Part shown: piece by piece, positions 2 to 17,501 of the stretch
Layout: every line of letters begins with the position of its first letter
How positions within the stretch are numbered: the stretch's first letter is position 1
Translations under genes and position numbers: made by a program
The notes under the pieces: model-generated
Database searches by the model: none
Told to the model about the DNA's origin: nothing
What the model saw: only the letters and a program-made list of their open reading frames with translations
Assembly (NCBI GenBank): GCA_964365755.1
Contig: CAYIRD010000001.1
Span: 3,781 to 27,780 of the forward strand
Direction: 5' to 3'
DNA length: 24,000 bases
Source: an uncultured Gammaproteobacteria bacterium
Lineage (GTDB): Bacteria; Patescibacteriota; Microgenomatia; Levybacterales; GWA1-39-11

Positions 2-1075
2 GACGCAACTTTTGTTTCTTTGTCAGGCGTTCATATATTAAGTCAAAATTCAAAAGGTGTTGTTGCAATTTCTGCACCCAATGGAGAGATAGGTCCCCAG
101 GACGTTCAAAGAGTTTTAGAGGCTGCTGGCGCTATCTCTACTCCCTCCACAACTACAATTCTTCACGTTCTTCCAAAGACATTTACAGTTGATGGAGAAG
201 GGGGGATTAAAGATCCAGTAGGGATGACTGGAGTAAGACTTGAAGTTGATACTCACATTATTACTGCAAATTCCGTTTCTGTAAAAAATATCCAGAGAGT
301 TCTTGAACAGGAAGCAGGCGTTGGTGTTTCTCAAGTTGTATTTTCGGGTCTTGCATCATCACTTTCAATTCTTACAGAGACAGAACGCGAGCTAGGCGTA
401 GTTTTAATCGATATTGGAGCAGGTATTACAAACATTTGTATATATGTTGACGGTGCCCTTTCTTATTCTTCTGTAATACCGATTGGCGCGCGTCATATTA
501 CAAATGACCTTGCAATTGGTCTTAGAATTTCACTTGAAAGCGCAGAAAAGATTAAGCTTTATCTTTCAAAGAGATATGGTAAGAAGCACAATGAAGATGA
601 GAAAGTAGAAGAAGAGACGGGCGATGAGCTGGATTTGGGAGGACTTCATTTGGTTGAAGAATTAAAAAAGGTCTCTCAAAAAACATTGGTGGACGGAATA
701 ATTAAACCCCGATTAAACGAATTATTCACATTTGTAGGTATTGAGCTTAAGAAAAGCGGATTTGCAACACAGACTCCGGCAGGAGTCGTTATTACTGGGG
801 GAGGTGCAAGAACCGCTGGGGCGCAGGAAAGCGCAAAAAGAATGCTCTCAATGCCGGTGAGAATAGGGATACCTGCTAATATTACGGGCTTGATAGATGA
901 TGTTGAGAACCCGGCCTTTGCAACATCCGTGGGTCTTCTTTTCTATGCTCGCGGTTTTCAAGGTAGACAAGAAAGTTCATTTTTCTCAGGAATTATGCGT
1001 CCTCTCAACCTCAACTTCACCCGCGGCCTCCTTGGTTCTGTCACCAAACTAATCAAGACATTTTTACCAAAATAA
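2..1075 (+). CDS. ftsA: Cell division protein FtsA, C-terminal ~357 aa; the 5' end is off the left edge
   Basis: The frame is open from nt 2, with no stop before the listed TTG at 20. Actin-fold ATPase motifs typical of FtsA are present: 'VLIDIGAGITNICIY' and 'GVVITGGGARTAGAQESAKRMLSMPVRIGIP'. The C-terminal amphipathic 'LLGSVTKLIKTFLPK' resembles the FtsA membrane-targeting helix. Confidence 0.9.
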   Translation, partial: DATFVSLSGVHILSQNSKGVVAISAPNGEIGPQDVQRVLEAAGAISTPSTTTILHVLPKTFTVDGEGGIKDPVGMTGVRLEVDTHIITANSVSVKNIQRVLEQEAGVGVSQVVFSGLASSLSILTETERELGVVLIDIGAGITNICIYVDGALSYSSVIPIGARHITNDLAIGLRISLESAEKIKLYLSKRYGKKHNEDEKVEEETGDELDLGGLHLVEELKKVSQKTLVDGIIKPRLNELFTFVGIELKKSGFATQTPAGVVITGGGARTAGAQESAKRMLSMPVRIGIPANITGLIDDVENPAFATSVGLLFYARGFQGRQESSFFSGIMRPLNLNFTRGLLGSVTKLIKTFLPK

Positions 1076-1111
1076 CCCACAAAGCAAATTAGATTGATAT
1101 AATAAGTACTC

Positions 1112-1140
1112 TTGAACTATAGGCTCAATAATGGTATACT
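1112..1140 (+). promoter_or_regulatory. Sigma70-like promoter for the repeat-protein operon (TTGAAC-17 nt-TATACT)
   Basis: -35 TTGAAC at 1112-1117, a 17-nt spacer, and -10 TATACT at 1135-1140. Only 9 nt separate the -10 from the ATG at 1150, and no Shine-Dalgarno lies between them. This implies a leaderless or near-leaderless mRNA. Confidence 0.4.
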
Positions 1141-1149
1141 CCAGCCACA

Positions 1150-2457
1150 ATGAAAGAGCGTGTCTCTTCTTATGGCTCAGCTTCGGAACAAGCTCAAATT
1201 CCAATTCCCCGCGACAAGCGAGGCAGAATTCAGTGGAGATTACTAAAAGGCGATGTGAATCAGTTAAGAAGTGTGATTGAATTTCATGCTTCTAGTTTAA
1301 TCAGTGAAGGATCCCCGCTGAATAGGGAAGCTTTTAAAAAAGCTGGTCTTCATAGCATTGATGCTGCGATTACTCGATATTATCCAGATGGAATGCTAGG
1401 TTTAAAGATAAACCTCGGATTACAACCCGACAAAAGGCCCAAATCTTATTGGACAAATGAGACAATAGAGGAGGAGACTAGAATTTTTTTGGAAGGTAGA
1501 GCTGAAGGTAAAAATAGGTTAACTCAAAGATTGCTGCAAGGAAACGGAAGGTCAGATTTAGCATCAGCAATAACGAATCATTACCCGGGTGGAATGTACG
1601 TACTTAGAGAGAGACTCGGATATACCAACGAACGAAAACCAGTAGGCTACTGGACTCAAGAGAAAATTGAAGAGGAAGCCAGAGCGTTTTTCGAGCAAGA
1701 AGGAGAGTTAACTCAAAGCCTTTTGTTTCAAAAGGATCGACAAGATTTGAGTACTCAAATTAAACACTATCCGGGAGGAGCCACACAATTAAGAATTAAA
1801 ATAGGAGCAAAAATTTTAAGAAAAAATGGGTATTGGACAGAAGAACAAATAGAAAGTGATACCTCACAATTCTTGCAAGAATATGATGGAATAACAGAAA
1901 ATCTACTCACAATTCATAAAAGACAAGATCTTTTAGGGGCTATTCGTCAGTATTATCCTGGAGGGTTAATAAGATTGAAAGAGAGATTAGGCTTAATCCC
2001 TAAGAATAAGCCTGTTGGATACTGGACTACTGAAAGAATAGAAGAGGAAACCTTAGCTTTTTTGAATCAATTTGGAATACTAACCCCTGGAGAATTAAAA
2101 AAGAATGGAAGGCAAGACTTAATAGGAGCAATAAATGAACACTATCCCGGAGCCTTTACTAAATTGAAAGAACATTTAGGGATCGGGCCGGACAGGAGAT
2201 CTAATGGTCACTGGAGAAATCCTAAAAATGTAGAGGAAGAGGCCCGAATCCTTTTGGACAATGGTTATTCTATAGCAAATAAAGATCTAAGAGCAGAGCA
2301 TTCGGGTTTTATATCCGCTGTTAGGAAATATTATCCGGGAGGCTTAATTGCTTTGAGAGAAAAACTTGGAATTGCGAACGGAGAGAGATTAATTTTAATT
2401 TCTCCGGATGAAGCGAATGAACAATTGAGGAGGCTTTTGGAGGAAAAAGATGAATAA
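1150..2457 (+). CDS. Tandem-repeat protein paralogue 1 (435 aa, 6 repeats) with conserved C-terminal tail ISPDEANEQLRRLLEEKDE; function unknown
   Basis: Long ORF. The repeat-initial Trp falls at aa 29, 101, 168, 229, 292 and 355. The unit consensus is 'GYWTxExIEEEARxF...G.LT...L....RxDL..AI...YPGG...LKE+LGL'. The N-terminal motif is 'PRDKRGRIQW'. Confidence 0.85.
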   Translation: MKERVSSYGSASEQAQIPIPRDKRGRIQWRLLKGDVNQLRSVIEFHASSLISEGSPLNREAFKKAGLHSIDAAITRYYPDGMLGLKINLGLQPDKRPKSYWTNETIEEETRIFLEGRAEGKNRLTQRLLQGNGRSDLASAITNHYPGGMYVLRERLGYTNERKPVGYWTQEKIEEEARAFFEQEGELTQSLLFQKDRQDLSTQIKHYPGGATQLRIKIGAKILRKNGYWTEEQIESDTSQFLQEYDGITENLLTIHKRQDLLGAIRQYYPGGLIRLKERLGLIPKNKPVGYWTTERIEEETLAFLNQFGILTPGELKKNGRQDLIGAINEHYPGAFTKLKEHLGIGPDRRSNGHWRNPKNVEEEARILLDNGYSIANKDLRAEHSGFISAVRKYYPGGLIALREKLGIANGERLILISPDEANEQLRRLLEEKDE

Positions 2458-3799
2458 GGAAAGATCACAAATGACTGGCGAGCAATACTTTTTTTCAGAA
2501 TTACCCCGCAATAGAAGAGGTATCCGCTGGAGCGTTATTCCAGAGGCGAACAGGGAATTAATTATCGAAGGGGAAGCGAGAAAAATATACACTGAGACAG
2601 GAAGATTAAATAAAGGTGCATTTGAAGAGACAGGGAGACAAGATATAATTGGGGCAATTACTCTATATTATCCTGGAAGACTTACAGGTTTAAAGAAAAC
2701 CCTTGGGTTAACTGTACCTGCTACCAGCATACCCATTCAAAGTAGTCAGGAAGAAGATTTTATTGTTAGAGACGCAGGGGGAAGAGTTTTGTGGTCTAAG
2801 ATGGCGCAAGATCAAAGAATGAGGGTAATAGAACAAGAAGCCTTAAGTTTTGTCCAGTCTGGACACTTCACAGATAGTGAACTACGAACAAGAAATTATG
2901 GATTGTTAATGGCTGCAAAAACTTATTACCCTAATGGTATATTAGGTGTTCGAGAAAGGTTAAATTTAAAAGCCAAAAAGACTCCAAAGGGTTATTGGAC
3001 TTTAGAGAAAATAGAAAGAGAAGCAAGAGAGTTTCTTAGTACATATGGAGTAATATCGAGACGTGTTTTGTACCAACATAATCGTGGAGACTTAAGCGAG
3101 GCAGTTAAATCAAAATTTCCAGGTGGTTTTGTAGCGCTAAAAGAGAGACTTGGTGCGGTTCAAGCTAAACCGGGCGGGTTTTGGACAAAAGAAAGAATTG
3201 AACAAGAAGCCCTAGCTTATTATAAAGAGCGTGGTTTTTTAAGCGCAAGACATTTAATAAAAAATGGTCGAGGAGATCTAGCTATGGCAATTTCGCAGAA
3301 TTATCCTGGGAGGATGACGAAACTAAAAGAAGCTCTGGGATTAGACCCATTGCGGAAGGATAATTATTGGACTCAAGAGAAAATAGCAGAAGAGGCAAGA
3401 AAGTTTTACGAAACCGAAGGAGTTTTAACGGCTAAAGCACTGTATAGGATGGGTCGTTCCGACCTGGCATCGCAAATTAGTAGGTCTTACAAAGGAGGAT
3501 ATTTAGCGTTGAAGAGAGAATTGAGAATAGAATTAAGTAAAAGACCTGATGGATATTGGACTCCCGAAGCAATTGAAGCTGAAGTAAGAAATTTTTTAGA
3601 TAATGAAGGGACAATAAGCAGTGGCGTACTACATAGAAAAAAACCAGCCCTATATGCAGCAATAAGGCTTCACTATCCGGGGGGAAAATTAGCGCTTGAA
3701 TCTAAGCTTGGAATTATTAGGCAAGAAACAGAAATGACTGTTTCGCCGGATGAGGCGAATGAACAATTAAGAAGACTTTTGGAGGAAAAAGATGAATAA
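2450..3799 (+). CDS. Tandem-repeat protein paralogue 2 (449 aa, 6 repeats) with C-terminal tail VSPDEANEQLRRLLEEKDE; function unknown
   Basis: The ATG at 2450 overlaps the upstream stop in ATGAATAA, and GGAGG at 2439-2443 lies 6 nt upstream. It has the same repeat consensus, with N-terminal 'PRNRRGIRW'. Confidence 0.85.
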   Translation: MNKERSQMTGEQYFFSELPRNRRGIRWSVIPEANRELIIEGEARKIYTETGRLNKGAFEETGRQDIIGAITLYYPGRLTGLKKTLGLTVPATSIPIQSSQEEDFIVRDAGGRVLWSKMAQDQRMRVIEQEALSFVQSGHFTDSELRTRNYGLLMAAKTYYPNGILGVRERLNLKAKKTPKGYWTLEKIEREAREFLSTYGVISRRVLYQHNRGDLSEAVKSKFPGGFVALKERLGAVQAKPGGFWTKERIEQEALAYYKERGFLSARHLIKNGRGDLAMAISQNYPGRMTKLKEALGLDPLRKDNYWTQEKIAEEARKFYETEGVLTAKALYRMGRSDLASQISRSYKGGYLALKRELRIELSKRPDGYWTPEAIEAEVRNFLDNEGTISSGVLHRKKPALYAAIRLHYPGGKLALESKLGIIRQETEMTVSPDEANEQLRRLLEEKDE

Positions 3800-5657
3800 A
3801 GAATTCGAAGTCAGAACAGACCAACAATTTCAGAATCAGCAATCGTTAGATACTCCTCGAGACAGAAGGGGAAGAATAGACTGGCGCGCTTTAAACAGTA
3901 ATCCGGAACAACTTGTCGCGTATGTAGATTCAGAAATCGAGAGATTTCTTGCCGAGGGCCACCAGTTGTCTTATGTAGGGTTAGTTAAAGGCGAGAGAGA
4001 TTTTCTATACACCGGAGTTAAAAGATATTACCCAGGAGGCATGGATACATTAAAAGAAAAATTTGGGATTGTTAGTGTTACGAAACCAGGGCGGTACTGG
4101 TATGATTCACACAATATTGAGGAAGAAGCGAGAAAGTTGGCAGCAAAGGGTAGCGATTTATCACAACGTAGCCTTAAAGAATTTAGTATGCAATCTATGA
4201 GTTCTGCAGTTAGAAGATACCCAGGAGGTTTGCAAGCCCTTAGAGAAAAATTAGGCATCGCACAAGTAAGAGTTGCTAGAGGATATTGGCAAGTGCCTGC
4301 AAATATTGAGAAGGAGGCAAGAGCATGCCTTGGGAAAGGAATTGATATATCTCAGAAAAGCTTGAAAAAAGCAGGCTTATCCTCATTATCTTCAGCAATA
4401 GCACAAAAATATCCCGGCGGCACGAGCGCTTTAAGAGAAAAATTAGGATTACCAATAAGACGCCCAAATGGATACTGGCAGAATCCGGTAAATGTTGAAC
4501 ATGAAGTTTCAAAAATAATCGATGAAGAGGGAAATTTAACAGAGCCAATAATTAATAGACACAATCCTTCATTGATGCCCGCTATTTATAAACACTATGA
4601 AGGAGGATTGGCTGCGTTGAGAGCTAAATTTGGCCTAAAAGAGACAAAAAAAAAGACAGGATATTGGACAATGGAACAGATAGAATATGAGGCAAGAAAA
4701 TTTTACGAGGAGAGAGGACTATTAACCGGACCGGCTTTGATCACAAACAATAGACAGGACTTGTTGGGGGCTATCCAGAGCAAATACCCAGGAGCTCTGA
4801 TTGGTATTAAAAATAGACTAGAAATTCATTCTGTCAGGCCAAAGGGCTACTGGACACCAGATAACATTGAGAGAGAAGCAGCAAAATTTATAGCTCAACA
4901 TGAAGATTTAAACCATGTTTTGTTAAGGTCCAATAATTTAGCTGGATTCGCTTCTGCAATTTCAAGCTTTTATCCCGGAGGCATGAGAGGTCTACGAAGA
5001 AAACTTGGCTTAGAGGTAAAATCAAGGCCTCTTGAGTTTTGGACAATCGAGAATATAGTAGGAGAAGCAAGAAAAATTTATGAAACTGAAGGAGATTTAT
5101 CGCAAAAAATATTAGTTAGGCTGAGAAATCTTTCTCTTAATTACGCTATTCAAAAGAAGTATCCGGGTGGGATGGATGGATTAAAAAGAGATATAGGGAT
5201 TAGATCTAGCGAAAGACCTAATGGCTATTGGACTCCCGAAACTATTGAACAAGAAGCTAAAAAATTCTATTTAACACACGGGACATTGGACTCAAAAAGC
5301 ATGCGCGGAAAAGGTGAATCTGGCCTTTCATCCGCTATAAGCTCCAAATATCCAGGAGGTTTTAGGGCATTAAAAGGAAAATTCGGGGTTGCGATTAATC
5401 AGCGTCCTCCCAATTATTGGGTTAATCCTGAAAACATCGAACTTGAACTACAGAGATTTCTAGAAGCGGGAAATACATTTTCGGATGAAGATCTCAAAAG
5501 AGCGGGTTTGACAAGCTTGCGGTATGCAATAAGTGAGTATTACCCAGGAGGTATGAGTGCAATAAGAGAAAAGTATGGCCTTACAAAAGGCGAAAGGCAA
5601 GTTGTGATTTCCCCCGATGATGCGAATGAACAATTGAGAAGATTGATTGAAGATTGA
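3792..5657 (+). CDS. Tandem-repeat protein paralogue 3 (621 aa, 9 repeats) with C-terminal tail ISPDDANEQLRRLIED; function unknown
   Basis: It has the same ATGAATAA stop/start overlap and the same GGAGG as the previous junction. There are nine 'YW...YPGG' units and an N-terminal 'PRDRRGRIDW'. Confidence 0.85.
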   Translation: MNKEFEVRTDQQFQNQQSLDTPRDRRGRIDWRALNSNPEQLVAYVDSEIERFLAEGHQLSYVGLVKGERDFLYTGVKRYYPGGMDTLKEKFGIVSVTKPGRYWYDSHNIEEEARKLAAKGSDLSQRSLKEFSMQSMSSAVRRYPGGLQALREKLGIAQVRVARGYWQVPANIEKEARACLGKGIDISQKSLKKAGLSSLSSAIAQKYPGGTSALREKLGLPIRRPNGYWQNPVNVEHEVSKIIDEEGNLTEPIINRHNPSLMPAIYKHYEGGLAALRAKFGLKETKKKTGYWTMEQIEYEARKFYEERGLLTGPALITNNRQDLLGAIQSKYPGALIGIKNRLEIHSVRPKGYWTPDNIEREAAKFIAQHEDLNHVLLRSNNLAGFASAISSFYPGGMRGLRRKLGLEVKSRPLEFWTIENIVGEARKIYETEGDLSQKILVRLRNLSLNYAIQKKYPGGMDGLKRDIGIRSSERPNGYWTPETIEQEAKKFYLTHGTLDSKSMRGKGESGLSSAISSKYPGGFRALKGKFGVAINQRPPNYWVNPENIELELQRFLEAGNTFSDEDLKRAGLTSLRYAISEYYPGGMSAIREKYGLTKGERQVVISPDDANEQLRRLIED

Positions 5658-5682
5658 AACTATAGGTTTAAAATGTTAAAAT
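5654..5682 (+). promoter_or_regulatory. Possible internal promoter for the helicase-methyltransferase gene (TTGAAA-17 nt-TAAAAT)
   Basis: -35 TTGAAA at 5654-5659 overlaps the stop of the upstream gene. A 17-nt spacer precedes -10 TAAAAT at 5677-5682. It shares the string TTGAA(A)CTATAGG with the promoter at 1112. Confidence 0.3.
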
Positions 5683-5683
5683 T

Positions 5684-5703
5684 GGGCTGATTAACAGCCC
5701 TTT
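5684..5703 (+). terminator. Stem-loop GGGCTG-ATTAA-CAGCCC followed by TTT; either a weak intrinsic terminator/attenuator or a 5'-UTR hairpin
   Basis: A perfect 6-bp, GC-rich stem (5684-5689 / 5695-5700) has a 5-nt loop and a short T-tract (5701-5703). It sits in the only intergenic gap of the cluster. Confidence 0.3.
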
Positions 5704-5712
5704 CAATAAAAT

Positions 5713-8700
5713 ATGACATCAGAAATGTTAAAAGAAGGACAGCCACAGCCAGTGCAAGAAAATCACGATTCAAGAATCGCGGATTTGAATGCAGTGATTT
5801 TGAAGCCAGAAAAAATTCATGTTCTATTAAGTTTGAAACCGGGTGACCCCGGATACCCGTTTGATAATGGAGAAACATTTGAAGCAAATTATGAATCCTC
5901 AACCGATTTTGGATTGAAATATATCATGGCTAGATCTCTGCTTCAGGATGGTAAGTATGATAAACCACTTCTATTGCTTAGAAAGTTTATTCCAGCAGCG
6001 GATATAATTACTAAGCATAAAGAAGCTGAGGATCGCCAAAAGGCAGAAGAAGAAATTAAATCCGGCTTTGCCCAGGAATTGAAAGATAGATTACGGCTTC
6101 TACTTGTAGAAAAAGGACAAATTAAGCCTGGATCTGAAGAGGATAAAGATGCCCAGAAGGCTCTTATTCGCTTTGCGGAAAGAGATCAAATCCTAAGACA
6201 ACTAATGGAACTTTTACCTATCCATGTAGTAGGTGCCATCACGAGTGCTCAAATGTTTGAAAACGTAACAGACGAGGAAAAAAGAGAAAAATTACGGTCA
6301 TGGACAACTCGAGCACTCAGGCCCTATCTTGGGGATTTACTTGTTCGTAAACCTCAGGGCGATATTAATTTTCGAGATATTATAACATTGGTTCCTGCAA
6401 AGATTTTCGATGATTGGGATACTGCCACAGCGAATATTGTAAGAGATCACTTTGAAAGACTAGCGATGGGCATGTTCACAGAAAGTGAAGAAGAAGGGTT
6501 TAGTAGGCTGGAGGATGCTTTTAGATCAGAACAATCTGAATCTAAAAGGCAATTTCTGCAAGGGGTTCTTGATGAGTTTAAAGAGATTAGAGATGAAGAA
6601 ATTCCTCCAGTTTTCAAAGATCAAGTCGAGGGCTGGTTTTCCCCCACCTCACCTTTCCCATTGTTTCGTCAAAAATATTTTGTCCATGAATTCAAAAAAA
6701 CTCACAGGAAATTTTTAAACGGTGATACCGGAGCTACAAAAACGGCCTGTGCGGACCTTGCAATGGAGTCAGTTGGTGCCTCGCGCGTAACTATTTTTGG
6801 CCCAGCTAAGGCACGGAACACTTGGCCAAGAGAGGCTCGTAAGATTTACCAAGAGGACGCGCAGCCTGACGTTTTTGCTGTAATAAGCGCAAAGGATTTA
6901 GATAATCCCAGAATTAAGACAGCCAAGCAGGTTTATATATCGAGTGAATTAATGGCAAGAGCATGGTCCAACCCAGAATTGAATGCAACCATGACAGAAG
7001 CAGTCATTACTAATAGACATACAGATGGGATAATTTTAGACGAGTACGATGTTTTTCGTCATCAGAGTGCAAAGTCAACTAAGATGCTAAGGCACCTCGT
7101 AACTCAAATACAAGCTAATAACCAAGAGTTAGTACCAATGATACCTTTGACAGCAACACCTCTTTCATCATCCCTTAAAGATTTAGACATCTCGATGGCT
7201 CTTCTTTACCCTGAACGGTTCGCCTTTCCTAAGAGCAACCAAGATGGTAAATTTACTTTTAGTACTCTTGCTTTGATGGATCCAAAAATCGCTTATTCAC
7301 TTCTTTATGGCGAGCAACTTATGATTCAGTGGAGTCTTGAAGATCTTTTCGGGGAGAAAGCACCAAAACTTGATCCTAAAATAGTAAATCTTGAGATGAC
7401 TGCTTCTCAATATGAAATTTATCAATGGGTGCTTTCCCTACCTATAAGAAATCCGCTTGAGAAAATTGCTATGTTAAGAAGTGTTCTTCTTAATCCCAAT
7501 ATAATTAAAAAAACCATTAGGGAAAAGGGGTTAATACCAGAACCGGTTTATGATCCGGCAAAATTTGGGGAGCACTTGGAAGAGCTTTACAATTCATGGT
7601 GGGAATGGTTTGAAACTTCACCTGATAAATTTGAACCCTTTAGCGCCGACTGGATTGCAAAATTTGGAGATGGTCAATTTTTAATACAATTGTTTTTTGA
7701 TAATCGATTTGCGGATGGAATTGAATCGCTAGTTATGCGATACCCACACATCCGAACAGATTGGCAAGAAGCTAAATTCCCTTCTGTAAAATATGAGGCT
7801 ATCAAAAAGTTTTTGGAAAGAACAATAATTAAAACAGAAGATGGCTATGAATTCAGCCAAAAAACAATGATAGTTTCCCCTTTTCACAAAGAAGGTATTA
7901 CCAGGTGGTTTGATGATCCTTACATTAGACCGGAAGATCTTGATAATGATGCCTGGAGCTTATATGAGATGTTGCGCCTCGATTTTTCTAATTTGCCAAA
8001 TGAAGCATCTATTAACATTGATGGACAGAAATCTTTTTCAGCAAGAGACCGTGCGGCACAGGAATGGCGAGAATCAGGGATAAAGAATAACATAGTAGTT
8101 GCTTCTATGCGGTCAATTTATCAGAGTATGGATTGGGCAATTCGCGATACAGAAGATAATAAAAATATTGAAGCTATGAATGTTATATTCTTAGGCTGGC
8201 CTTGGGGATGGGATGAATTTAAGCAGATGTCTGGTCGTTTCTTGCGTCCTGGTCAAACCAAACCTGTTAATATATATATCTTAGAAACAGAGAACTCGAT
8301 TGACAGAGGGTTTAAAGACTTGGTTAAAATCAAAGACCTTCTATCGCAAATGGCTTTGGCAGGAGTTGAGCTCTCAAAAGAAGATCAAGTTTTTTTCAGC
8401 GACGCAACTTCTGCTAAAAGAATTTTAATCGAACATCCGAAAGTCGGCCAGCTTTTCCTTTACGATGCTTTTGCCAAATTAAGGGGTATGTCGGAAGAGG
8501 AGATGAGAATTGAGCTTGCCAAGGAAATTAACGGCAGAACTTTAGGATCTTGGCTTGCCGAATTTTATCTTGATGAAGGGAATGATGAATATCGAATAGT
8601 TGGAAACAACGCTGAATTAGTGAAAAATGTCGTACTTCGCGAACATCCCGAACATGTATTATCTGTTGGCTCAGGGACTTGTATTTTTGCAAGAAAAATT

Positions 8701-9624
8701 GCAAGAACCGGAATCCCAATAATAATTGATAATCTCGATATCAATCTTGAAGTATTACAGCTTGCCAAACAAAAAAATCCAGAAATAGGCAATGTTCTTC
8801 ATGAGAGTGCCACTAAGATTAGTAAAAGAGACGGAACTTATGATGCAATTGAATGTTCTTTTGTGCTCCCACTGATTAAGTTGGTTGACAATGGTAAAGT
8901 TCCAAACGATGCTACAGGTGCCGATAGAGTTAAGACATTACTTGAGATGAATCGTGTTCTTAAAATAGGTGGAACAGCAGTTCTAACATTTCCTGAAAAC
9001 TCTTTTAACGAGGAGTCTTTTGCGAGGTTTACCAAAGCTTTAACAAGGAATTTTGGTTTTCAAGTTGTTGGTCCAACAGGAGTTAGTTTTGCATCTGATA
9101 TAACTCCTAACAAAAAACTTGGATGGATTATAACTGTGAGAAAAATAAATAAACCGGATCTTTCAAATATAGATTCTGAAGATCTTATGTTCGAGACAGA
9201 CCGCGATAGAATTAGCCGTTATAAAGGCAAAAAAAATGGGGCTACCGTAAAAGTTATCGATTACCCGATTTTTGCGTCTAAGGAATTTAGGATTTATAAT
9301 CCATTAACACGTGAAGTCGCAACAAATAAAACTGATGTTGTTGATAAAATTACAGTTACTCCGCAAGAACTTGTTGAATTAATCAAGCCAAATCTTTCAG
9401 ATAGCCAAAGAGAAATTTGGGTGGAGGCCAGGCGTAAAATTGAAAGAGGACTTGATCAAAACTATTCGTTAGCAGAACAAACATTAGCTAGTATTTTTGC
9501 CCGCAGAAGGTTAGATGCTAGCGTCTGGAGTGATGAGGCAGTTAGAAAAATTCTAGATGCTGAAATAAGAAGACTAGTAAGAACATATCGCACAAGGGAG
9601 GCAGAATATGAGGGAACAATTTAG
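5713..9624 (+). CDS. SNF2-family helicase fused to a class I SAM-dependent methyltransferase (1303 aa)
   Basis: SNF2-like motifs: I 'GDTGATKT' (aa 337), Ia 'VTIFGPAKARNTW', II 'ILDEYDVF' (aa ~441), III 'LTATPLSSSLKDLDISMALLYPERF', C-lobe 'NIDGQKSFSARDRAAQEW', and VI-like 'QMSGRFLRPGQTKPVNIYIL' (aa 838). Methyltransferase motifs: motif I 'VLSVGSGTCIFARKIA' (aa 982), 'YDAIECSFVL', and 'MNRVLKIGGTAVLTFP' (aa ~1078). The ~330-aa N-terminal and ~170-aa C-terminal regions are unassigned. Confidence 0.75.
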   Translation: MTSEMLKEGQPQPVQENHDSRIADLNAVILKPEKIHVLLSLKPGDPGYPFDNGETFEANYESSTDFGLKYIMARSLLQDGKYDKPLLLLRKFIPAADIITKHKEAEDRQKAEEEIKSGFAQELKDRLRLLLVEKGQIKPGSEEDKDAQKALIRFAERDQILRQLMELLPIHVVGAITSAQMFENVTDEEKREKLRSWTTRALRPYLGDLLVRKPQGDINFRDIITLVPAKIFDDWDTATANIVRDHFERLAMGMFTESEEEGFSRLEDAFRSEQSESKRQFLQGVLDEFKEIRDEEIPPVFKDQVEGWFSPTSPFPLFRQKYFVHEFKKTHRKFLNGDTGATKTACADLAMESVGASRVTIFGPAKARNTWPREARKIYQEDAQPDVFAVISAKDLDNPRIKTAKQVYISSELMARAWSNPELNATMTEAVITNRHTDGIILDEYDVFRHQSAKSTKMLRHLVTQIQANNQELVPMIPLTATPLSSSLKDLDISMALLYPERFAFPKSNQDGKFTFSTLALMDPKIAYSLLYGEQLMIQWSLEDLFGEKAPKLDPKIVNLEMTASQYEIYQWVLSLPIRNPLEKIAMLRSVLLNPNIIKKTIREKGLIPEPVYDPAKFGEHLEELYNSWWEWFETSPDKFEPFSADWIAKFGDGQFLIQLFFDNRFADGIESLVMRYPHIRTDWQEAKFPSVKYEAIKKFLERTIIKTEDGYEFSQKTMIVSPFHKEGITRWFDDPYIRPEDLDNDAWSLYEMLRLDFSNLPNEASINIDGQKSFSARDRAAQEWRESGIKNNIVVASMRSIYQSMDWAIRDTEDNKNIEAMNVIFLGWPWGWDEFKQMSGRFLRPGQTKPVNIYILETENSIDRGFKDLVKIKDLLSQMALAGVELSKEDQVFFSDATSAKRILIEHPKVGQLFLYDAFAKLRGMSEEEMRIELAKEINGRTLGSWLAEFYLDEGNDEYRIVGNNAELVKNVVLREHPEHVLSVGSGTCIFARKIARTGIPIIIDNLDINLEVLQLAKQKNPEIGNVLHESATKISKRDGTYDAIECSFVLPLIKLVDNGKVPNDATGADRVKTLLEMNRVLKIGGTAVLTFPENSFNEESFARFTKALTRNFGFQVVGPTGVSFASDITPNKKLGWIITVRKINKPDLSNIDSEDLMFETDRDRISRYKGKKNGATVKVIDYPIFASKEFRIYNPLTREVATNKTDVVDKITVTPQELVELIKPNLSDSQREIWVEARRKIERGLDQNYSLAEQTLASIFARRRLDASVWSDEAVRKILDAEIRRLVRTYRTREAEYEGTI

Positions 9625-10144
9625 CGAACCACTTTCTCCACAAGAAAGAACAAGGCAACTTTTTTCTAAAAACTTTGATGACTTCGCGGAGAATCTTAGG
9701 GGCAAGGTTGTTGTTCTATTGGGAACAGATAAAAAAATTACATTAGATCTGGTTGAAGGATGGAATTTAGAATCAAACATGAAAACACACAAAAACTTTC
9801 TGCAACTTAATCCAGGAGACTGGGAAGCTAGCAGAATACCCATAAGGCAAATGCGTCAATCACTAATTATTGCGAAAGATGGAGACCGGGTTGGTGCATG
9901 TGCCAGAGTAGTTAGGGCTTCTTACTTTGATAATGATCAAGGACAGTTTATTCAAATGCCAAGGGAAGGCGACATTGCCAATTATTTAGGCCTTGGCGAT
10001 AACGAATTAGCAAGGCTGGTCTACATGGATGATTCGGATTCGCTGTATTTGTTACGAGGGGAACAAGGTTCACAAAATATAAGCCCCGATGAGGCAAACG
10101 AACAACTAAGAAGACTTTTGGAGGAAAGAGATAATGAGTCCTGA
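9608..10144 (+). CDS. 178-aa protein of unknown function carrying the shared C-terminal tail ISPDEANEQLRRLLEERDNES
   Basis: GGGAGG at 9596-9601 lies 6 nt before the ATG at 9608. The ORF overlaps the helicase gene by 17 nt. I recognise no domain. The tail is identical in peptide to those of the repeat proteins. Confidence 0.7.
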   Translation: MREQFSEPLSPQERTRQLFSKNFDDFAENLRGKVVVLLGTDKKITLDLVEGWNLESNMKTHKNFLQLNPGDWEASRIPIRQMRQSLIIAKDGDRVGACARVVRASYFDNDQGQFIQMPREGDIANYLGLGDNELARLVYMDDSDSLYLLRGEQGSQNISPDEANEQLRRLLEERDNES

Positions 10145-10556
10145 AGGGAGAAGAAGAGTAGAATTTACATTTAATACAAGACCTGATATTCTTGCTGGTC
10201 GTCTTATTGGAGTACGAATAAGGCTTGGTAATCAATTGGCCGAGATTGTGGGAACAGAGTGGTATCCTGCAGAAGAAAATACGAAAGGGACATATAGGAA
10301 AGTTTATGAATCAGAGCCGGGTACATTAGTCGCTACAGGATATAGAAATTCAGTCTTGCCCTTAGTTGCTGCAAAAGGCGGAGCTTGCGTTCTTATTCGC
10401 GAAATTGAGGTACGAAATCAGGAAGGAAAACTTGAAACTGTAAAAGGGCCTGGAAGAGTTGGAGAAAAATTGGGTTTGAAAAAAGGTGACGCGCGGAATC
10501 TAAGTATGGAAGATCCCCATGATTTAATATTTAGTTTGGTAGAGATCAATCGATAG
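10134..10556 (+). CDS. Truncated DNA-3-methyladenine glycosylase (MPG/AAG family)-like protein, 140 aa
   Basis: It aligns by eye to the MPG family. 'LAGRLIGV...AEIVGTEWY' matches 'LLG..L...GRIVETEAY', 'EPGTL' matches 'KPGTLYVY', 'GGACVLIREIE' matches 'GACVLLRALEP', and 'GPGRVGEKLGL' matches 'GPSKLCQALAI'. It is shorter than typical family members (about 190-220 aa from memory) and appears to lack the C-terminal segment. GGAGG at 10120-10124 lies 9 nt before the ATG. Confidence 0.6.
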   Translation: MSPEGRRRVEFTFNTRPDILAGRLIGVRIRLGNQLAEIVGTEWYPAEENTKGTYRKVYESEPGTLVATGYRNSVLPLVAAKGGACVLIREIEVRNQEGKLETVKGPGRVGEKLGLKKGDARNLSMEDPHDLIFSLVEINR

Positions 10557-10587
10557 GGATTCAATTCAATTAAAAACTAGAGTTGCA

Positions 10588-10824
10588 TTGGGGTTTTTGT
10601 GGTTGACAAAGATTGTATGGATATCATACAATATCCCCATAAATACTACAGTTAATATTTCGATTCCAACGAAATTATATAAAGATGCAAAGAGATTTGC
10701 TGCCGAATATGGATATTCATCAATGAGCGAATTAATTAGGCAAGCTTTAAGAATAGAATTATATTCTGCTCCCGAGCTTGGGAGGAAAGGTAAAGCTCTC
10801 AAGAGAATTAATAAAAATATTTAA
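10588..10824 (+). CDS. Small ribbon-helix-helix (CopG/Arc-like) protein; start codon uncertain
   Basis: 'VNISIPTKLYKDAKRFAAEYGYSSMSELIRQALRIEL' fits the strand-helix-helix RHH pattern. The only in-frame canonical-type starts are TTGs at 10588, 10597 and 10603, upstream of or overlapping the promoter-like element. No ATG or GTG lies near the domain start. Confidence 0.4.
   Translation: MGFLWLTKIVWISYNIPINTTVNISIPTKLYKDAKRFAAEYGYSSMSELIRQALRIELYSAPELGRKGKALKRINKNI
10603..10632 (+). promoter_or_regulatory. Sigma70-like promoter TTGACA-18 nt-TACAAT
   Basis: Consensus -35 at 10603-10608 and -10 TACAAT at 10627-10632. It lies inside the 5' part of the listed 10588 ORF. It could drive the RHH ORF and/or a long ftsZ leader. 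Confidence 0.4.
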
Positions 10825-10831
10825 CAACTTC

Positions 10832-10857
10832 ATTGCGCTTGCAATCAATTTTTTTTT
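10832..10857 (+). terminator. Weak stem (ATTGC-GCTT-GCAAT) followed by a T9 run
   Basis: A 5-bp stem (10832-10836 / 10841-10845) is followed by nine consecutive T at 10849-10857, just after the RHH ORF stop. The stem is short and AT-rich, so the call is tentative. Confidence 0.3.
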
Positions 10858-10876
10858 GTGATAGGATGGGTCGATC

Positions 10877-10893
10877 TTCGAACATTGTTCGAA
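10877..10893 (+). promoter_or_regulatory. Perfect palindrome TTCGAAC-ATT-GTTCGAA 10 nt upstream of the ftsZ ATG
   Basis: 7-bp inverted repeat arms with a 3-nt centre. A possible extended -10 (TGaTAGGAT, 10859-10867) lies just upstream. ftsZ has no Shine-Dalgarno. Confidence 0.3.
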
Positions 10894-10903
10894 TTATTAA
10901 ACA

Positions 10904-13824: not shown

Positions 13825-13878
13825 ATGAATAATTTTACTATACAAATAATATATAAGGCAATTGAGCGCACCAAATAG
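13825..13878 (+). CDS. Candidate 17-codon upstream ORF (MNNFTIQIIYKAIERTK) ahead of the RND operon
   Basis: It has the strongest Shine-Dalgarno in this intergenic region: AAGGAGG at 13808-13814, 10 nt before the ATG at 13825. Its stop codon (13876-13878) lies in the loop of the 13869-13890 hairpin, just after the 5' arm. Confidence 0.3.
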   Translation: MNNFTIQIIYKAIERTK

Positions 13879-13903
13879 AAGTGCTTGGTGATAATTGTTT
13901 TTT
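13869..13903 (+). promoter_or_regulatory. Hairpin CACCAA-N10-TTGGTG followed by a T6 tract; possible attenuator or operator
   Basis: 6-bp arms at 13869-13874 and 13885-13890. An alternative GCAC/GTGC pairing shares the same nucleotides. TTTTTT at 13898-13903 lies 7 nt after the stem and 31 nt before the operon ATG. Confidence 0.25.
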
Positions 13904-13934
13904 ATCATACAAGCTCATTCCTGTCCTGTAAATA

Positions 13935-14387
13935 ATGATGCGCAATCAATTGGCTGTCCTGATATTAATAGCTTCTGTAGTTCTCCTAGTTCTACTAGAT
14001 AGAGGCACAAAGGTATCAGATAATTCGGTTAAAACCGAACCCGCCAAAGTCGAACCTATTCAAGGGACTGACTTCAAACAAGTAACGTTGACTGCAAAAG
14101 CCGCAGAGCGGCTCGGGATTAAAACAGTTCCGGTTCGTGAAGAAATATCAGCCAGAACGGACACTCTAAAGCTTGTTGTTCCTTACGATTCAATAATCTA
14201 CGGTCTAAACGGCGAAACATGGGTATACATAAACCCTAAATCTCTTGTTTTCGTTCGGTCTCCGATAAGTATCGACTACATAGTAGGAGATTTTGCGATT
14301 CTCTCTGAGGGCCCAACTTCTGGTACAAAGGTCGTAACAGTCGGAGTAGCACAGCTGTATGGTATAGATACAGGAATTGGGAAATAA
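13935..14387 (+). CDS. Small membrane-anchored periplasmic adaptor-like protein (150 aa), probable minimal membrane-fusion partner of the RND pumps
   Basis: It has an N-terminal TM helix 'LAVLILIASVVLLVLL'. 'AERLGIKTVPV' and the C-terminal 'VGDFAILSEGPTSGTKVVTVGVAQLYG' resemble the ends of HlyD/CusB-type adaptors. The long alpha-hairpin is absent. The gene sits directly upstream of the RND genes. Confidence 0.5.
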   Translation: MMRNQLAVLILIASVVLLVLLDRGTKVSDNSVKTEPAKVEPIQGTDFKQVTLTAKAAERLGIKTVPVREEISARTDTLKLVVPYDSIIYGLNGETWVYINPKSLVFVRSPISIDYIVGDFAILSEGPTSGTKVVTVGVAQLYGIDTGIGK

Positions 14388-14408: not shown

Positions 14409-17400
14409 ATGCAATGGATTATTAGATCGAGCTTAAGACTTCAATTTATCTTACTTATTCTTGCTGCAGCTCTTGTGGTTTTTGGTATCCGGGAACTTCG
14501 GACTATGCCCATTGATGTCTACCCTGAGTTTAATCCGCCGATGGTGAACGTTCAGACTGAAGCCCTCGGGCTTTCCGCAGCGGAAGTGGAAGCTCTTGTT
14601 ACTGTTCCACTCGAGGCAGATCTTCTTAATGGTGTAGCATGGGTTGATCAAATTTACTCTGAGTCGGTCACTGGTCTATCGTCAATTCACCTCATCTTCA
14701 AACCCGGGACAGATCCTATTCGGGCACGTCAAATGGTGCAGGAGCGTCTGACGCAGACGTATGCTTTGCCAAATGTCTCAAAACCTCCCACGATGCTCCC
14801 GCCCCTATCGACCACGAGCCGCGTCATGATGGTTGGACTTTCCTCGGATAAACTTTCCCTTATTGAAATAGGAGTATTGGCCCGCTGGAATATTACGCCC
14901 CGCCTGATGGGGGTGCCTGGAGTTGCTAATGTGGCTATTTGGGGACAGAGAGAGCGGCAATTGCAGGTACAAGTGGATCCGGAGAAATTATATGCTCAGG
15001 GCGTTACCCTTTCACAAGTTATCAAAACAACAGGAGAAGCCTTGTGGTTTTCGCCATTAAGCTTTCTAGAATCATCGTCGCCCGGAACAGCCGGGTGGAT
15101 TGACACTCCCAATCAAAGGCTTGGTATCCAACACGAGCTGCCCATCTCTGAGCCTTCGGATCTGGCACAGGTGGTTCTCGCGGACAACACGGAGTTAAGA
15201 CTCGGTGATGTCGCAAAGGTGGTGGAAGATCATCAGCCGCTCATTGGGGAAGCTATCTTGAAGCGCGGTCCAGGACTTTTGCTCGTCATTGAAAAATTTC
15301 CTGGGGCAAACATAAAAGAAGTTACACGTAGGGTAGAGGAAGCACTTGTTGCCATGCGGCCCGGTCTTACCGGTATAGATATTGATACTACTATTTTCCG
15401 TCCTGCTACCTACATCGAGAAGGCAACTCACAATCTCACCCTGATGTTGCTTGTTGGCACTATGCTTGCGATTTTGGTTTTTTATTTTTTTTTCTTTGAG
15501 TGGCGTATAGCACTCATCAGCGCGGCTTCGATGCTTTTATCATTACTAACAGCAGGGTTCGTGCTTTATCTTCGCGGGACAACTTTCAATACGATGACTC
15601 TTTTGGGATTCATTATCGCAATCGGCGTTGTCATGGACGATGCCGTTATCGGCGTAGAAAATATCTATCGGCGTTTTCATCAGAATGGTAAAAAGAAGCG
15701 TAGCCAGATGTTTGTTACTTCGGTTATTTTAGAAGCGACTAGTGAGTTGCAAGGACCATTAGTTTTCACAACGCTGATGATTCTTCTCACAGTGTCACCA
15801 GTATTTTTTATGCAAGGAGAGTCTGGTGCATTTTTTCAACCATTTGCCACATCTTTTGTGTTGGCAGTCTTGAGCTCTACGATAATTGCTCTTATCTTAA
15901 CCCCAGTATTAAGCCTGACTTTTTCAAGAGCTTTCCTCAAGCGGCACGAATCACCTCTTGTGAGTTGGTTGAACCTAAGCCTGAGGAGACTTCTTGTGCC
16001 GGCTTTTAAGGTGCCGAAACAAACATACATCATAGTCGTTGTCGCCGTTTTTGTAGGTTTGTCAGTTTTACCAACTCTTAGTGTTTCACTCGTTCCAAAG
16101 TTTAGGCAGACAGATCTATTGATCAAATGGGAGGGCCCACCTGGCACATCCCGTCTTGAAATGAGCCGGATTATAAACCAGGCAAGTCAAGAGTTACGGG
16201 AAGTTACTGGTGTCACAAACGTCGGTGCTCATCTCGGGCGAGCCATCACTGGGGATAAAGTTGCCGGAATCAATTCCGCTGATCTTTGGATCAGTCTTGA
16301 TTCTCAAGCTGACCTAGACATAGCAACAAAAAACATTCAGGAAGTAATTGACGGTTACCCCGGGCTTTTTCATCAGGTCCAGACGTACCAACCAAAAAGA
16401 ACGCGAGAAGCACTCACGGATGAAAATGAAACCCTAAGCGTTCGGATTTATGGTCATGATTTGAAAGTTCTTGAAAGACTTGGGAAGGAAGTTAGGAAGG
16501 CAATTTCAGGGATCGACGGTGTAGTTGCCACTGCGGAAGAACCACAAGTCGAGGAACCGCAGGTGCAAATCAAAGTGGATCTTAAGAGAGCTCAAGCTTA
16601 TGGGCTCAAACCAGGCGATATACGTCGACAAGCAACCACATTACTGTCAGGCATCCAAGTCGGCAGTCTTTATGAAGACCAAAAAGTATTTGAAGTAGTG
16701 GTATGGGGCGAACCTGAAATCCGTAATAGCCTTACCGATATTCGTGATCTAATGATTGAAACACCCGCTTTCGCACAAGTGCCTTTGGAGGAGTTGGCAG
16801 AAGTTAGTATCGCGCCTGCTCCAATTATCATTAAACGCGACAGTGTTTCCCGTTTTCTTGATGTTGAAGCTCGTGTGCCTGGTCGTGATCTTGTTTCGGT
16901 CGCGGCTGATATAAGAAGTAAACTCAAGTCAGTCGAATTTCCTCTTGAATACCATATGGAGGTTCTCGGTGCATCTATTGAGAAACAAGCGTCGCGCGCG
17001 CGTATGTTGGTAGTTATCGTTACCGCGGCAGTCGGGATTTTTCTTCTCATGCAGGCAGCCTTTGGTAGCTGGCGTTTGGCAATAGTATCTCTTCTGAGTT
17101 TACCTATGGCGCTTGTGGGGGGTGTTTTGGCAGCTTTTCTAACCGGTGGTATTCTATCGCTCGGTTCACTAGTTGGATTTCTTACAATACTTGGAATTGC
17201 AGTAAGAAACAGTATCTTACTCATCAGTCACTACCAGCATCTTGAGAGACTTGAAGGCCAAACCTTTGGTCCCAAACTCATCCTGCGTGGTACTCGCGAA
17301 CGACTAGCACCAATTCTTGCGACTGCACTCGCATTAGGGCTTTTTCTTCTTCCAGCAGTACTATTTGGTAATATTACTGGGGTTGAGATAGTGCAACCGG

Positions 17401-17501
17401 CGGCAATTGTCATTTTTGGTGGGCTTATCACCTCGACTTACCTCACCCTCCTCGTTTTACCGGTCTTATACTTACGTTTTGGAAAAATCCACCATGGATG
17501 A
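14409..17501 (+). CDS. RND-superfamily efflux permease, paralogue 1 (1030 aa)
   Basis: The size and 12-TM layout fit an RND permease. The N-terminus 'IRSSLRLQFILLIL...PIDVYPEFNPPMVNVQTEALGLSAAEVEALVTVPLE' is typical. The TM4 'AIGVVMDDAVIGVEN' carries the Asp-Asp proton-relay pair, and 'GFLTILGIAVRNSILLISHY' is also present. Confidence 0.9.
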   Translation: MQWIIRSSLRLQFILLILAAALVVFGIRELRTMPIDVYPEFNPPMVNVQTEALGLSAAEVEALVTVPLEADLLNGVAWVDQIYSESVTGLSSIHLIFKPGTDPIRARQMVQERLTQTYALPNVSKPPTMLPPLSTTSRVMMVGLSSDKLSLIEIGVLARWNITPRLMGVPGVANVAIWGQRERQLQVQVDPEKLYAQGVTLSQVIKTTGEALWFSPLSFLESSSPGTAGWIDTPNQRLGIQHELPISEPSDLAQVVLADNTELRLGDVAKVVEDHQPLIGEAILKRGPGLLLVIEKFPGANIKEVTRRVEEALVAMRPGLTGIDIDTTIFRPATYIEKATHNLTLMLLVGTMLAILVFYFFFFEWRIALISAASMLLSLLTAGFVLYLRGTTFNTMTLLGFIIAIGVVMDDAVIGVENIYRRFHQNGKKKRSQMFVTSVILEATSELQGPLVFTTLMILLTVSPVFFMQGESGAFFQPFATSFVLAVLSSTIIALILTPVLSLTFSRAFLKRHESPLVSWLNLSLRRLLVPAFKVPKQTYIIVVVAVFVGLSVLPTLSVSLVPKFRQTDLLIKWEGPPGTSRLEMSRIINQASQELREVTGVTNVGAHLGRAITGDKVAGINSADLWISLDSQADLDIATKNIQEVIDGYPGLFHQVQTYQPKRTREALTDENETLSVRIYGHDLKVLERLGKEVRKAISGIDGVVATAEEPQVEEPQVQIKVDLKRAQAYGLKPGDIRRQATTLLSGIQVGSLYEDQKVFEVVVWGEPEIRNSLTDIRDLMIETPAFAQVPLEELAEVSIAPAPIIIKRDSVSRFLDVEARVPGRDLVSVAADIRSKLKSVEFPLEYHMEVLGASIEKQASRARMLVVIVTAAVGIFLLMQAAFGSWRLAIVSLLSLPMALVGGVLAAFLTGGILSLGSLVGFLTILGIAVRNSILLISHYQHLERLEGQTFGPKLILRGTRERLAPILATALALGLFLLPAVLFGNITGVEIVQPAAIVIFGGLITSTYLTLLVLPVLYLRFGKIHHG

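Follow-up and report, generated by a model that had tools for sequence, protein, structure and literature searches.

The question raised by this locus is why several neighboring proteins of different fold should end in one and the same short peptide. The window, i.e., the whole stretch of 24,000 nucleotides that was analyzed, comes from a groundwater bacterium, and its operon spans helical-repeat genes, a helicase-methyltransferase gene and the genes of two further proteins, E and F. A first-pass annotation had reported the C-terminal peptide (I/V)SPD(E/D)ANEQLRRL(L/I)E on four open reading frames, and this is exact: it ends A, B, C and E (stops at 2457, 3799, 5657 and 10144), with the 15-residue tail block at 2398–2442, 3740–3784, 5607–5651 and 10079–10123. 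The features are listed here; the start of B is ambiguous (2450, or 2471, the choice of the gene caller).

1150..2457, + strand: accessory protein A, 435 aa, with an N-terminal PRDKRGRIQW motif, six helical modules of ~63 aa, linker and tail
2398..2457, + strand: tail of A, ISPDEANEQLRRLLEEKDE and stop, containing GGAGG (2439–2443) and the ATG of the next gene at 2450
2450..3799, + strand: accessory protein B, 449 aa, P0004 in the repeat-family search
3740..3799, + strand: tail of B, VSPDEANEQLRRLLEEKDE and stop, with GGAGG at 3781 and the next ATG at 3792
3792..5657, + strand: accessory protein C, 621 aa, with about nine modules
5607..5657, + strand: tail of C, ISPDDANEQLRRLIED and stop, with a different end (LIED) and no overlapping downstream gene
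5713..9624, + strand: tail-less hub, 1303 aa, with N-terminal domain, SNF2-type ATPase, methyltransferase and C-terminal domain
9608..10144, + strand: protein E, 178 aa, with a beta-rich AAG/MPG-like core, linker 151–159 and tail helix 160–176
10079..10144, + strand: tail of E, ISPDEANEQLRRLLEERDNES and stop, with GGAGG at 10120 and the next ATG at 10134
10134..10556, + strand: protein F, 140 aa, tail-less paralogue of E

The clearest evidence that the peptide itself is what is being kept comes from its codons. Those listed earlier for the four copies are all correct (Ser tct/tcg/tcc/agc, Pro ccg/ccg/ccc/ccc, Ala gcg/gcg/gcg/gca, Asn aat/aat/aat/aac, Leu ttg/tta/ttg/cta and Arg agg/aga/aga/aga), and the tails of E and A differ by nine codons, all of them synonymous. 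The drift of the DNA under a conserved peptide is thus real; its extent is only moderate, the four 48-nt copies being 73–92% identical. Synonymous mismatches at identical tail residues amount to 0.79 of what saturation would give, so that recent gene conversion does not account for the identity of the tails, and the 14 codons directly upstream are unrelated. The view that selection acts on the peptide, and that this is not a recent copy of DNA, is therefore supported. Tail identity is 77% within operons vs. 42% between operons, and the E-family tail was closest to the accessory tails of its own operon in four out of four cases, the best of 24 permutations. This pattern, together with the near saturation of synonymous sites, indicates that selection maintains the tail in at least two unrelated families and that the tails of one operon change together. 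Some of the uniformity seen among the repeat proteins of an operon could be due to common descent from lineage-specific duplications.

The end of the tail carries a second message. A GGAGG is found at 2439, 3781 and 10120, within the last six tail codons (L-L-E-E-K/R-D) and 6–9 nt ahead of the overlapping ATG, so that these codons of A, B and E are dual-coding: the following gene has its ribosome-binding site and its start codon in them. This overlap, the paralogy of E and F and the co-variation of tails within operons were all absent from the first-pass annotation.

In the window the bearers of the tail are of two kinds. The repeat proteins are built of a helical module of ~63 aa (GYWT...YPGG...LG), and in the AlphaFold model of A (pLDDT 87.6) modules of four helices are followed by a linker (412–416) below 50 and by the tail helix (419–434). 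A and C had no match in Pfam and B matched HAMP_2 only, while a Foldseek comparison of a repeat protein with the PDB gave nothing significant. The homing-endonuclease-associated repeat (PF18780) is matched by distant homologues only (P0031, P0033 and P0044); A, B and C do not match it at the gathering score. The helical-repeat proteins probably bind nucleic acid. Protein E had been described as otherwise unrelated to them, and this holds, a beta-rich AAG-like core standing against all-helical modules. Its model (pLDDT 94) resembles 1ewn in Foldseek (E 5.3e-4, TM 0.50). By sequence, E and F fell short of the curated cut-off for AAG/MPG (PF02245) and had no Pfam match; F matched the NCBIfam 3-methyladenine glycosylase weakly (13.9 bits, cut-off 182), and the E-family profile reached AAG chains in the PDB only at E 0.46–1.2. 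Inspected by eye at the ETEAY-type catalytic Glu region, F has IVGTEWY and the E-family consensus has no conserved Glu. E and F are paralogues (hhalign probability 97.8%, E 8.9e-13); the 140-aa “MPG-like” protein of the first-pass annotation is F, i.e., the tail-less paralogue of the 178-aa E.

On both of these unrelated folds, A and E, the AlphaFold models place one amphipathic helix after a linker of low confidence. In the predicted tail an S/T-P-D/E-E cap opens a helix of ~11–14 residues, with proline ahead of it and four hydrophobic positions (A, L, L, L) forming one face; its hydrophobic moment is 1.81 vs. 0.80 for shuffles (p = 0.005). The linker varies from 9 to 58 residues in the E family (87 representatives).

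The tail recurs well beyond the window. It ends nearly all of the 52 repeat-family matches and, by a strict pattern, 52 of 79 E-family representatives, about 16 others stopping directly after the core. Several other proteins carry it too; these have no terminal repeat, and one has HTH_36 at 31.5 bits. Absence from homologues, which the first-pass annotation had named as grounds for abandoning the idea, is therefore not what we found, and neither is another of its doubts, that of a generic terminus. A tail-only profile (80 tails, 16 columns, maximum score 27 bits) matched only A, B, C and E among all ORFs of the window, each at the C-terminus and at 19.6–25 bits, and matched nothing in a further 7.7 kb of upstream sequence from this genome. 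In a scan of whole metagenomes with a DNA pattern, the C-terminal SP..AN matches all lay in such operons wherever the context was readable; the remaining ones lay deep inside ORFs, in short ORFs that are spurious, or by chance at the C-terminus of unrelated proteins. Four matches of the tail pattern in viral contigs were all due to chance.

What the operons share apart from the tail is a single gene. In all 12 with readable context, a gene for an SNF2-helicase/methyltransferase of 1100–1300 aa adjoins the tail-bearing genes (the window, L004, L006, L007, L008, L009, L093, L095, JGI 3300071358, L035, L025 and L074, distinct operons from Patescibacteria-type metagenome contigs). It is the sole tail-less component that is constant; the other neighbors change from operon to operon, and the tail-bearing genes number from 2 to 8 or more, which fits exchangeable clients and not fixed subunits. 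A link with cell division, suggested by an ftsA-ftsZ position, was dropped because the other operons sit in unrelated neighborhoods. The flanks of the operon show neither direct repeats nor tRNA genes, i.e., no insertion scar was found, and the operon as a whole had no match among the family and defence-system models searched.

The hub consists of a family-specific N-terminal region of ~330 aa, an SNF2-type ATPase, a class I SAM methyltransferase (~970–1100) and a C-terminal domain. In Pfam the window hub matched Methyltransf_11 (1.9e-9) and, under the cut-off of 24.9, SNF2-rel_dom (22.6 bits), while its ortholog in L006 has the SNF2-related domain at 61.6 bits plus Helicase_C; a profile of five hubs found SNF2 ATPases in the PDB at 3e-7 and phrog_62 at 5.6e-19. 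By its SNF2-related and helicase C domains the hub thus belongs to the SNF2 family of ATPases. The N-terminal domain had no match in a large protein collection, which itself lacks the exact 1303-aa hub, and its profile found only designed helical bundles in the PDB. A scan of a genome collection with one narrow pattern from the hub alignment gave three species, none of them new. The hub C-terminus DAEIRRLVR was considered as tail-like and dropped, as it scored at noise level with the tail profile.

The reading that we prefer, and to which we would give an even chance, is that the tail is a tethered docking helix through which alternative accessory proteins are plugged into the helicase-methyltransferase, itself without a tail. 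The protein–protein docking peptide would consist of a flexible, poorly conserved linker and a short amphipathic alpha-helix after it, and a changing set of bearers (helical-repeat proteins, AAG/MPG-like proteins and some others) would all use it to bind one common receptor, most likely the hub of the same operon. The accessory proteins would then be interchangeable adaptors on a single motor-plus-methyltransferase enzyme, in a complex that would act on DNA, RNA or protein. That the hub is this receptor was already suggested in the first-pass annotation, and association speaks for it: its presence in every one of these operons and the absence of any segment in it that the tail profile recognizes. 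The docking reading is also favored by L094, a distant parallel operon in which six accessory proteins surround a different SNF2 protein and all end in another shared tail, LGSLLEEYVGGxE. Against the docking reading, the E fold can do without the tail, which is lacking in one homologue (L007, 138 aa), in about a fifth of the family and in F.

Much of this evidence bears also on other explanations. The tails might bind one another, their helices bundling so that the accessory proteins assemble as hetero-oligomers, whether the hub takes part or not. The helix is amphipathic, a need for mutually compatible tails in one cell would likewise produce uniformity within operons, and linkage in an operon is equally compatible with tail–tail binding. 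However, a helix of this length, with so few hydrophobic positions and a proline before it, is what groove-docking motifs typically have and is short if it is to form a stable bundle, and neither the variable copy number nor the tail-less E/F paralogues suggest a fixed assembly; we consider self-association unlikely. Less probable again is a sorting signal recognized by machinery that the operon does not encode, such as a C-terminal type IV secretion signal, which would export or package the accessory proteins. A C-terminal, glutamate-rich and modular tail is of the right kind, T4SS-like genes (TrbC/T4SS_pilin and a weak TraG/TrwB-like match) lie near two operons, and helicase-methylase proteins are known to recur in transferred elements (PMC5512222). 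On the other side, T4SS-like neighbors are absent from seven other operons whose surroundings could be read, the only constant partner is itself tail-less, and the hub had no match in plasmid or phage collections. Known secretion signals are, to our knowledge, loose, and fine lineage-specific co-variation would not be expected of them.

If instead the tail acted within its own protein, it would be a capping helix of the repeat array or an autoinhibitory helix. Many helical repeat proteins have capping helices, and the tail is modeled in the monomers at pLDDT 85–94, so that it could pack back on its own protein. Yet the same peptide sits on unrelated folds after linkers of 9–58 residues modeled at low confidence, and a cap would be expected to follow its own body and not the tails of neighboring genes. 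An intramolecular role is accordingly very improbable in our view. The explanation to which we give the least credit places the conservation in the nucleic acid, as a cassette for ribosome binding and translational coupling or as recently copied DNA, the peptide having no function. The GGAGG and next ATG that three tails contain in their final six codons, and the identity of the 48-nt copies, speak for it. It accounts for the LLEE(K/R)D end only. The 11 codons ahead of the ribosome-binding part keep the peptide with synonymous sites ~80% saturated, the tail of C, which no gene overlaps, still has SPDDANEQLRRL, and E-family tails at the ends of operons still carry the motif; for SPDEANEQLRR it is largely refuted.

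A tethered docking helix of this type has partial parallels in known systems. In chemoreceptors a C-terminal NWETF pentapeptide on a flexible linker recruits the methyltransferase CheR, and here too there is a short conserved C-terminal peptide on a linker, several paralogues and a class I SAM methyltransferase; however, the tail sequence is unrelated and predicted to be helical, the candidate hub is a fusion with an SNF2 ATPase, and chemotaxis genes are absent. Encapsulation peptides of microcompartments (amphipathic helices of ~15–20 residues on the cargo) and the cargo-loading peptides of encapsulins share the terminal position, the poorly conserved linker and the unrelated cargo encoded near the receptor gene, but the gene tables of the operons contain no shell or encapsulin gene. 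LxxLL and other amphipathic-helix docking motifs, like clamp-binding motifs, serve many clients of one hub in eukaryotic or replisome contexts. The tail shares this use of one short motif and contains L-R-R-L-L, but does not fit the patterns QL[SD]LF or Qxx[LIM]xx[FY][FY]. In type I restriction-modification, exchangeable HsdS specificity subunits bind HsdM/HsdR, and the likeness is that of alternative target-recognition proteins on one motor plus methyltransferase; there is no homology, and attachment here would be through the proposed 15-residue tail.

The combination of SNF2-type ATPase and methyltransferase in one unit is shared with DISARM, MADS and the DarB-like dyad of DNA methylase and SNF2 helicase found in phages and conjugative elements (PMC5512222). 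In the hub, however, the methyltransferase is a generic Methyltransf_11, not a recognizable N6-adenine DNA methylase, and separate tail-bearing adaptors are not described for any of the three. PADLOC mad2 gave a partial match to the methyltransferase region (1.4e-11, positions 256–422 of 492), the set of mad2 with mad1 and mad3-8 was not recovered, and A, C, E and F were otherwise without PADLOC matches. For DISARM, the operon gene tables hold no DrmA, DrmB, DrmC or DrmE; NCBIfam DrmD scored 25–30 bits on the L006 hub against cut-offs of 610–950 and did not match the window hub, for which PADLOC DrmD gave E 0.0041. The operon is without further DISARM or MADS genes.

Taken at its widest, the docking reading would describe a modular machine of Patescibacteria not recognized before, in which an SNF2-methyltransferase motor is programmed by AAG-like base-recognition modules and up to nine interchangeable, fast-diversifying adaptors, all plugged in by a C-terminal helix that works as a lineage-specific lock and key. 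This could be a new system of nucleic-acid targeting, modification or defence, or else a CheR-like tether to accessory proteins that are the substrates of the methyltransferase; we regard this wider picture as possible but somewhat doubtful. Candidate-phyla bacteria have tiny genomes, yet they spend 10–20 kb on this operon. If the hub is the receptor, one motor plus methyltransferase would be directed by exchangeable adaptors in an implementation unlike that of type I restriction enzymes, and an AAG-like fold would be linked to a methyltransferase. The shared, co-evolving helix offers an experimental handle: the 15-residue peptide should pull down its receptor, and an exchange of tails from one lineage to another should rewire the complex. 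Being compact, the tail can also serve as a marker when metagenomes are searched for more components of the system.

The tail, a C-terminal peptide of the form (I/V)SPD(E/D)ANEQLRRL(L/I)E, ends the helical-repeat accessory proteins A, B and C (435, 449 and 621 aa) and the 178-aa protein E exactly where the first-pass annotation had placed it, and the codon statements made there were all correct. A profile of 80 tails matched only these four among the window ORFs, always C-terminally, and nothing in the 7.7 kb of upstream cell-wall and division genes of the same genome. The hub, i.e., the SNF2-type helicase/methyltransferase already described as tail-less, contains no tail-like segment by the tail profile.

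Genes of the operon and its borders in the window
20–1075, ftsA
1150–2457, helical-repeat protein A (overlaps the B gene)
2450–3799, helical-repeat protein B (overlaps the A and C genes)
3792–5657, helical-repeat protein C (overlaps the B gene)
5713–9624, hub, SNF2-type helicase fused to a class I methyltransferase, 1303 aa
9608–10144, E, 178 aa
10134–10556, F, 140 aa
10904–11998, ftsZ

The tails of E and A differ in nine codons, all nine synonymously. The four 48-nt tail copies are 73–92% identical, so the DNA drift reported earlier is real yet only moderate. Overlooked at that time was a GGAGG at 2439, 3781 and 10120, inside the last six tail codons (L-L-E-E-K/R-D). In each case the ATG of the following gene comes 6–9 nt later, and that gene overlaps the tail stop, so that these codons are dual-coding. 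Tail C is not overlapped by any gene, and its end, LIED, is different. Conservation purely at the nucleic-acid level would apply to these six codons only, and is hardly credible for the tail as a whole. The synonymous test covered only the 11 codons that precede the ribosome-binding part; where residues were identical, synonymous mismatches were set against the saturation level expected from local codon usage. The ratio was 0.80 in the window and 0.79 across eight operons (minimum 0.57, in locus L008 from a related contig), and the 14 codons directly upstream of the tail were unrelated among the same proteins (32–42% nucleotide identity). Both results indicate that recent DNA copying is not the cause of the tail identity. 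Judged from these codon comparisons, it is explained by purifying selection on the peptide, as the first-pass annotation had argued.

A profile search with A, B and C gave 52 homologues, nearly all finishing in [IV][ST]P[DE][EQDK]A[ND]xxLx[RK]L[LE]E. A second motif, PRDxRGRIxW, is found at the N-terminus of most of them, and lies in A, B and C at 1210–1240, 2507–2530 and 3855–3885 (AlphaFold pLDDT 94). E appeared to be an orphan in a word-seeded search, and an exhaustive search found a family of 87 representatives. By a strict pattern, 52 of the 79 full-length ones are tail-ended, only about 16 stop directly after the core, and the core-to-tail linker has 9–58 residues (median 20). The tail, whose absence from homologues had been named earlier as a possible refutation, is thus kept both in the repeat homologues and in the E family. 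Nor is it a generic terminus: a degenerate DNA pattern for the tail, run over a metagenome collection, gave 76 loci, and the 17 C-terminal SP..AN-type matches among them all belonged to hub-type operons where the context was readable. The rest lay far inside ORFs or in short ORFs judged spurious, apart from a few that hit the C-terminus of unrelated proteins by chance. A type I restriction HsdM methylase (L039 7784–9400) ending in ...NTDEANEELKRFLELLK also fits the pattern C-terminally, probably by chance; HsdM C-terminal helices contact the specificity subunit.

Twelve distinct operons had readable surroundings (window, L004, L006, L007, L008, L009, L093, L095, a JGI contig, L035, L025 and L074). 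In all of them the tail-bearing genes are tandem, usually overlapping, and directly adjoin a gene for a SNF2/methyltransferase of 1100–1300 aa, often followed by an E-like gene; the remaining neighbours vary. Tail-bearing genes number from 2 to 8 or more per operon, and on a JGI contig available without its DNA nine genes precede the hub gene. L005 (3227–7078), a strain variant of the L004 operon, has a hub gene broken into ORFs of 715 and 533 aa, perhaps through a frameshift or through faulty assembly. The eight-tail operon of L093 holds two short tail-less repeat-protein fragments (13842–14243 and 14994–15281), which suggests ongoing gene decay and turnover in the array.

Tails are 77% identical within operons vs 42% between them.

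Tail versions by operon
Window, EQLRRLLE
L008, EDLDRLLE
L006, ELMRGLEE
L009, EDLWKLLE
L007, AQIEALLK
Ga0213870 contigs, EELMKFLE

In the four testable cases the E-family tail always had its closest counterparts among the accessory tails of the operon it belongs to (mean identity 0.80 vs 0.59, ranking first of 24 permutations). Common descent cannot account for this match, since E and the repeat proteins are unrelated. A distant parallel operon, L094 (1–8834), has six repeat accessory proteins around a different SNF2 protein of 1277 aa with no methyltransferase match, and all six finish in LGSLLEEYVGGxE. Two of them start with a similar MSETQLEEILDVYTSDE.

The AlphaFold model of E (pLDDT 94) has a beta-rich core, a low-confidence linker (151–159) and a helix (160–176). 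Its only significant PDB match is the human AAG/MPG glycosylase (E 5.3e-4, TM 0.50); AAG also heads the matches, here weak ones, of the E-family profile against PDB sequences. The model of A (pLDDT 87.6) strings together four-helix modules, followed by a linker (412–416, pLDDT < 50) and the tail helix (419–434); A had no informative PDB match and one phage match, uncharacterised. The same linker-then-helix ending is thus found on two unrelated folds, in keeping with the earlier view that E is unrelated to the repeat proteins. The separation of E from the "MPG-like" F did not hold, since E and F are paralogues within one family (hhalign 97.8%), F being without a tail, which had gone unnoticed before. 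F (10134–10556) retains the AAG-like motifs IVGTEWY and GPGRVGEKLGL and, among the operons examined, was found in the window only. Other tail bearers lack a terminal repeat, and one has an HTH_36 domain. The tail helix is amphipathic (hydrophobic moment 1.81 vs 0.80 in shuffles, p = 0.005).

The best-supported reading is that the tail would act as a tethered docking helix by which accessory proteins, in varying sets, attach to one shared receptor. The most likely candidate for this receptor is the hub, with about an even chance, as no other tail-less protein is always present; that the tail is under selection as some kind of protein-interaction motif can be said much more firmly. Bundling of tails with one another seems unlikely. 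A sorting or secretion signal, for which T4SS-like genes close to two operons would speak, is more doubtful, and a cis-acting cap or autoinhibitor more doubtful still.

Docking by the tail would resemble known cases of peptide-mediated recruitment, here to a helicase-methyltransferase: its logic is similar to that of the CheR-NWETF tether on chemoreceptors, encapsulation peptides and LxxLL-type docking helices, and the accessory modules recall type I restriction enzymes with their exchangeable specificity subunits. The hub itself is similar to a methylase-SNF2 helicase dyad known from mobile elements (PMC5512222) and to the DISARM and MADS systems; membership in any of the three failed on the features tested. 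Its methyltransferase is of the generic Methyltransf_11 type, with best matches to the mad2 model of MADS defence (1.4e-11), a predicted DNA methylase (bioRxiv 10.1101/2023.03.30.534895), and to small-molecule/peptide methyltransferases in PDB. The target could be DNA, RNA or the accessory proteins themselves. Walker A is GDTGATKT in window-type hubs (window 6730–6760, residues about 340–350) and MGLGKT, the canonical SNF2 form, in the divergent hub of L006; motif II is DEYDVFRH. Pfam, NCBIfam, PADLOC and PHROGs held no describing family for the E family, the tail or the accessory proteins, save that A and C match a PHROG of unknown function and B matches HAMP_2. A description of the operon was not found in a literature search.

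The 9.8-kb operon (1076–10903) lies between ftsA and ftsZ, normally adjacent, within a division/cell-wall cluster with a Mur ligase, mraY, ftsW and murG upstream (L096 1–8770, same genome). Its flanks showed neither direct repeats nor tRNA genes, and this position is peculiar to the window genome, the homologous operons of other genomes sitting elsewhere. The 55-nt gap between the C and hub genes contains an inverted repeat, GGGCTG-ATTAA-CAGCCC followed by TTT (5683–5699), which may be an attenuator or processing site setting the accessory-to-hub ratio; the hub gene start has no recognisable ribosome-binding site. The source sample is a Hainich groundwater 0.1-µm metagenome, and contigs related to the window carry a Patescibacteria label, presumably the taxon of the window too. 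L012 (CAZHDZ010000004.1), with a six-gene ADELMRGLEEE operon, is labelled 'uncultured Gammaproteobacteria', the remaining relatives all being Patescibacteria-type; its bin label may be wrong, or else the system may extend beyond the candidate phyla. At 14409–20610, G+C is 0.46–0.49 in two large tandem RND/AcrB-like transporter genes vs 0.37–0.43 in the remainder of the window.
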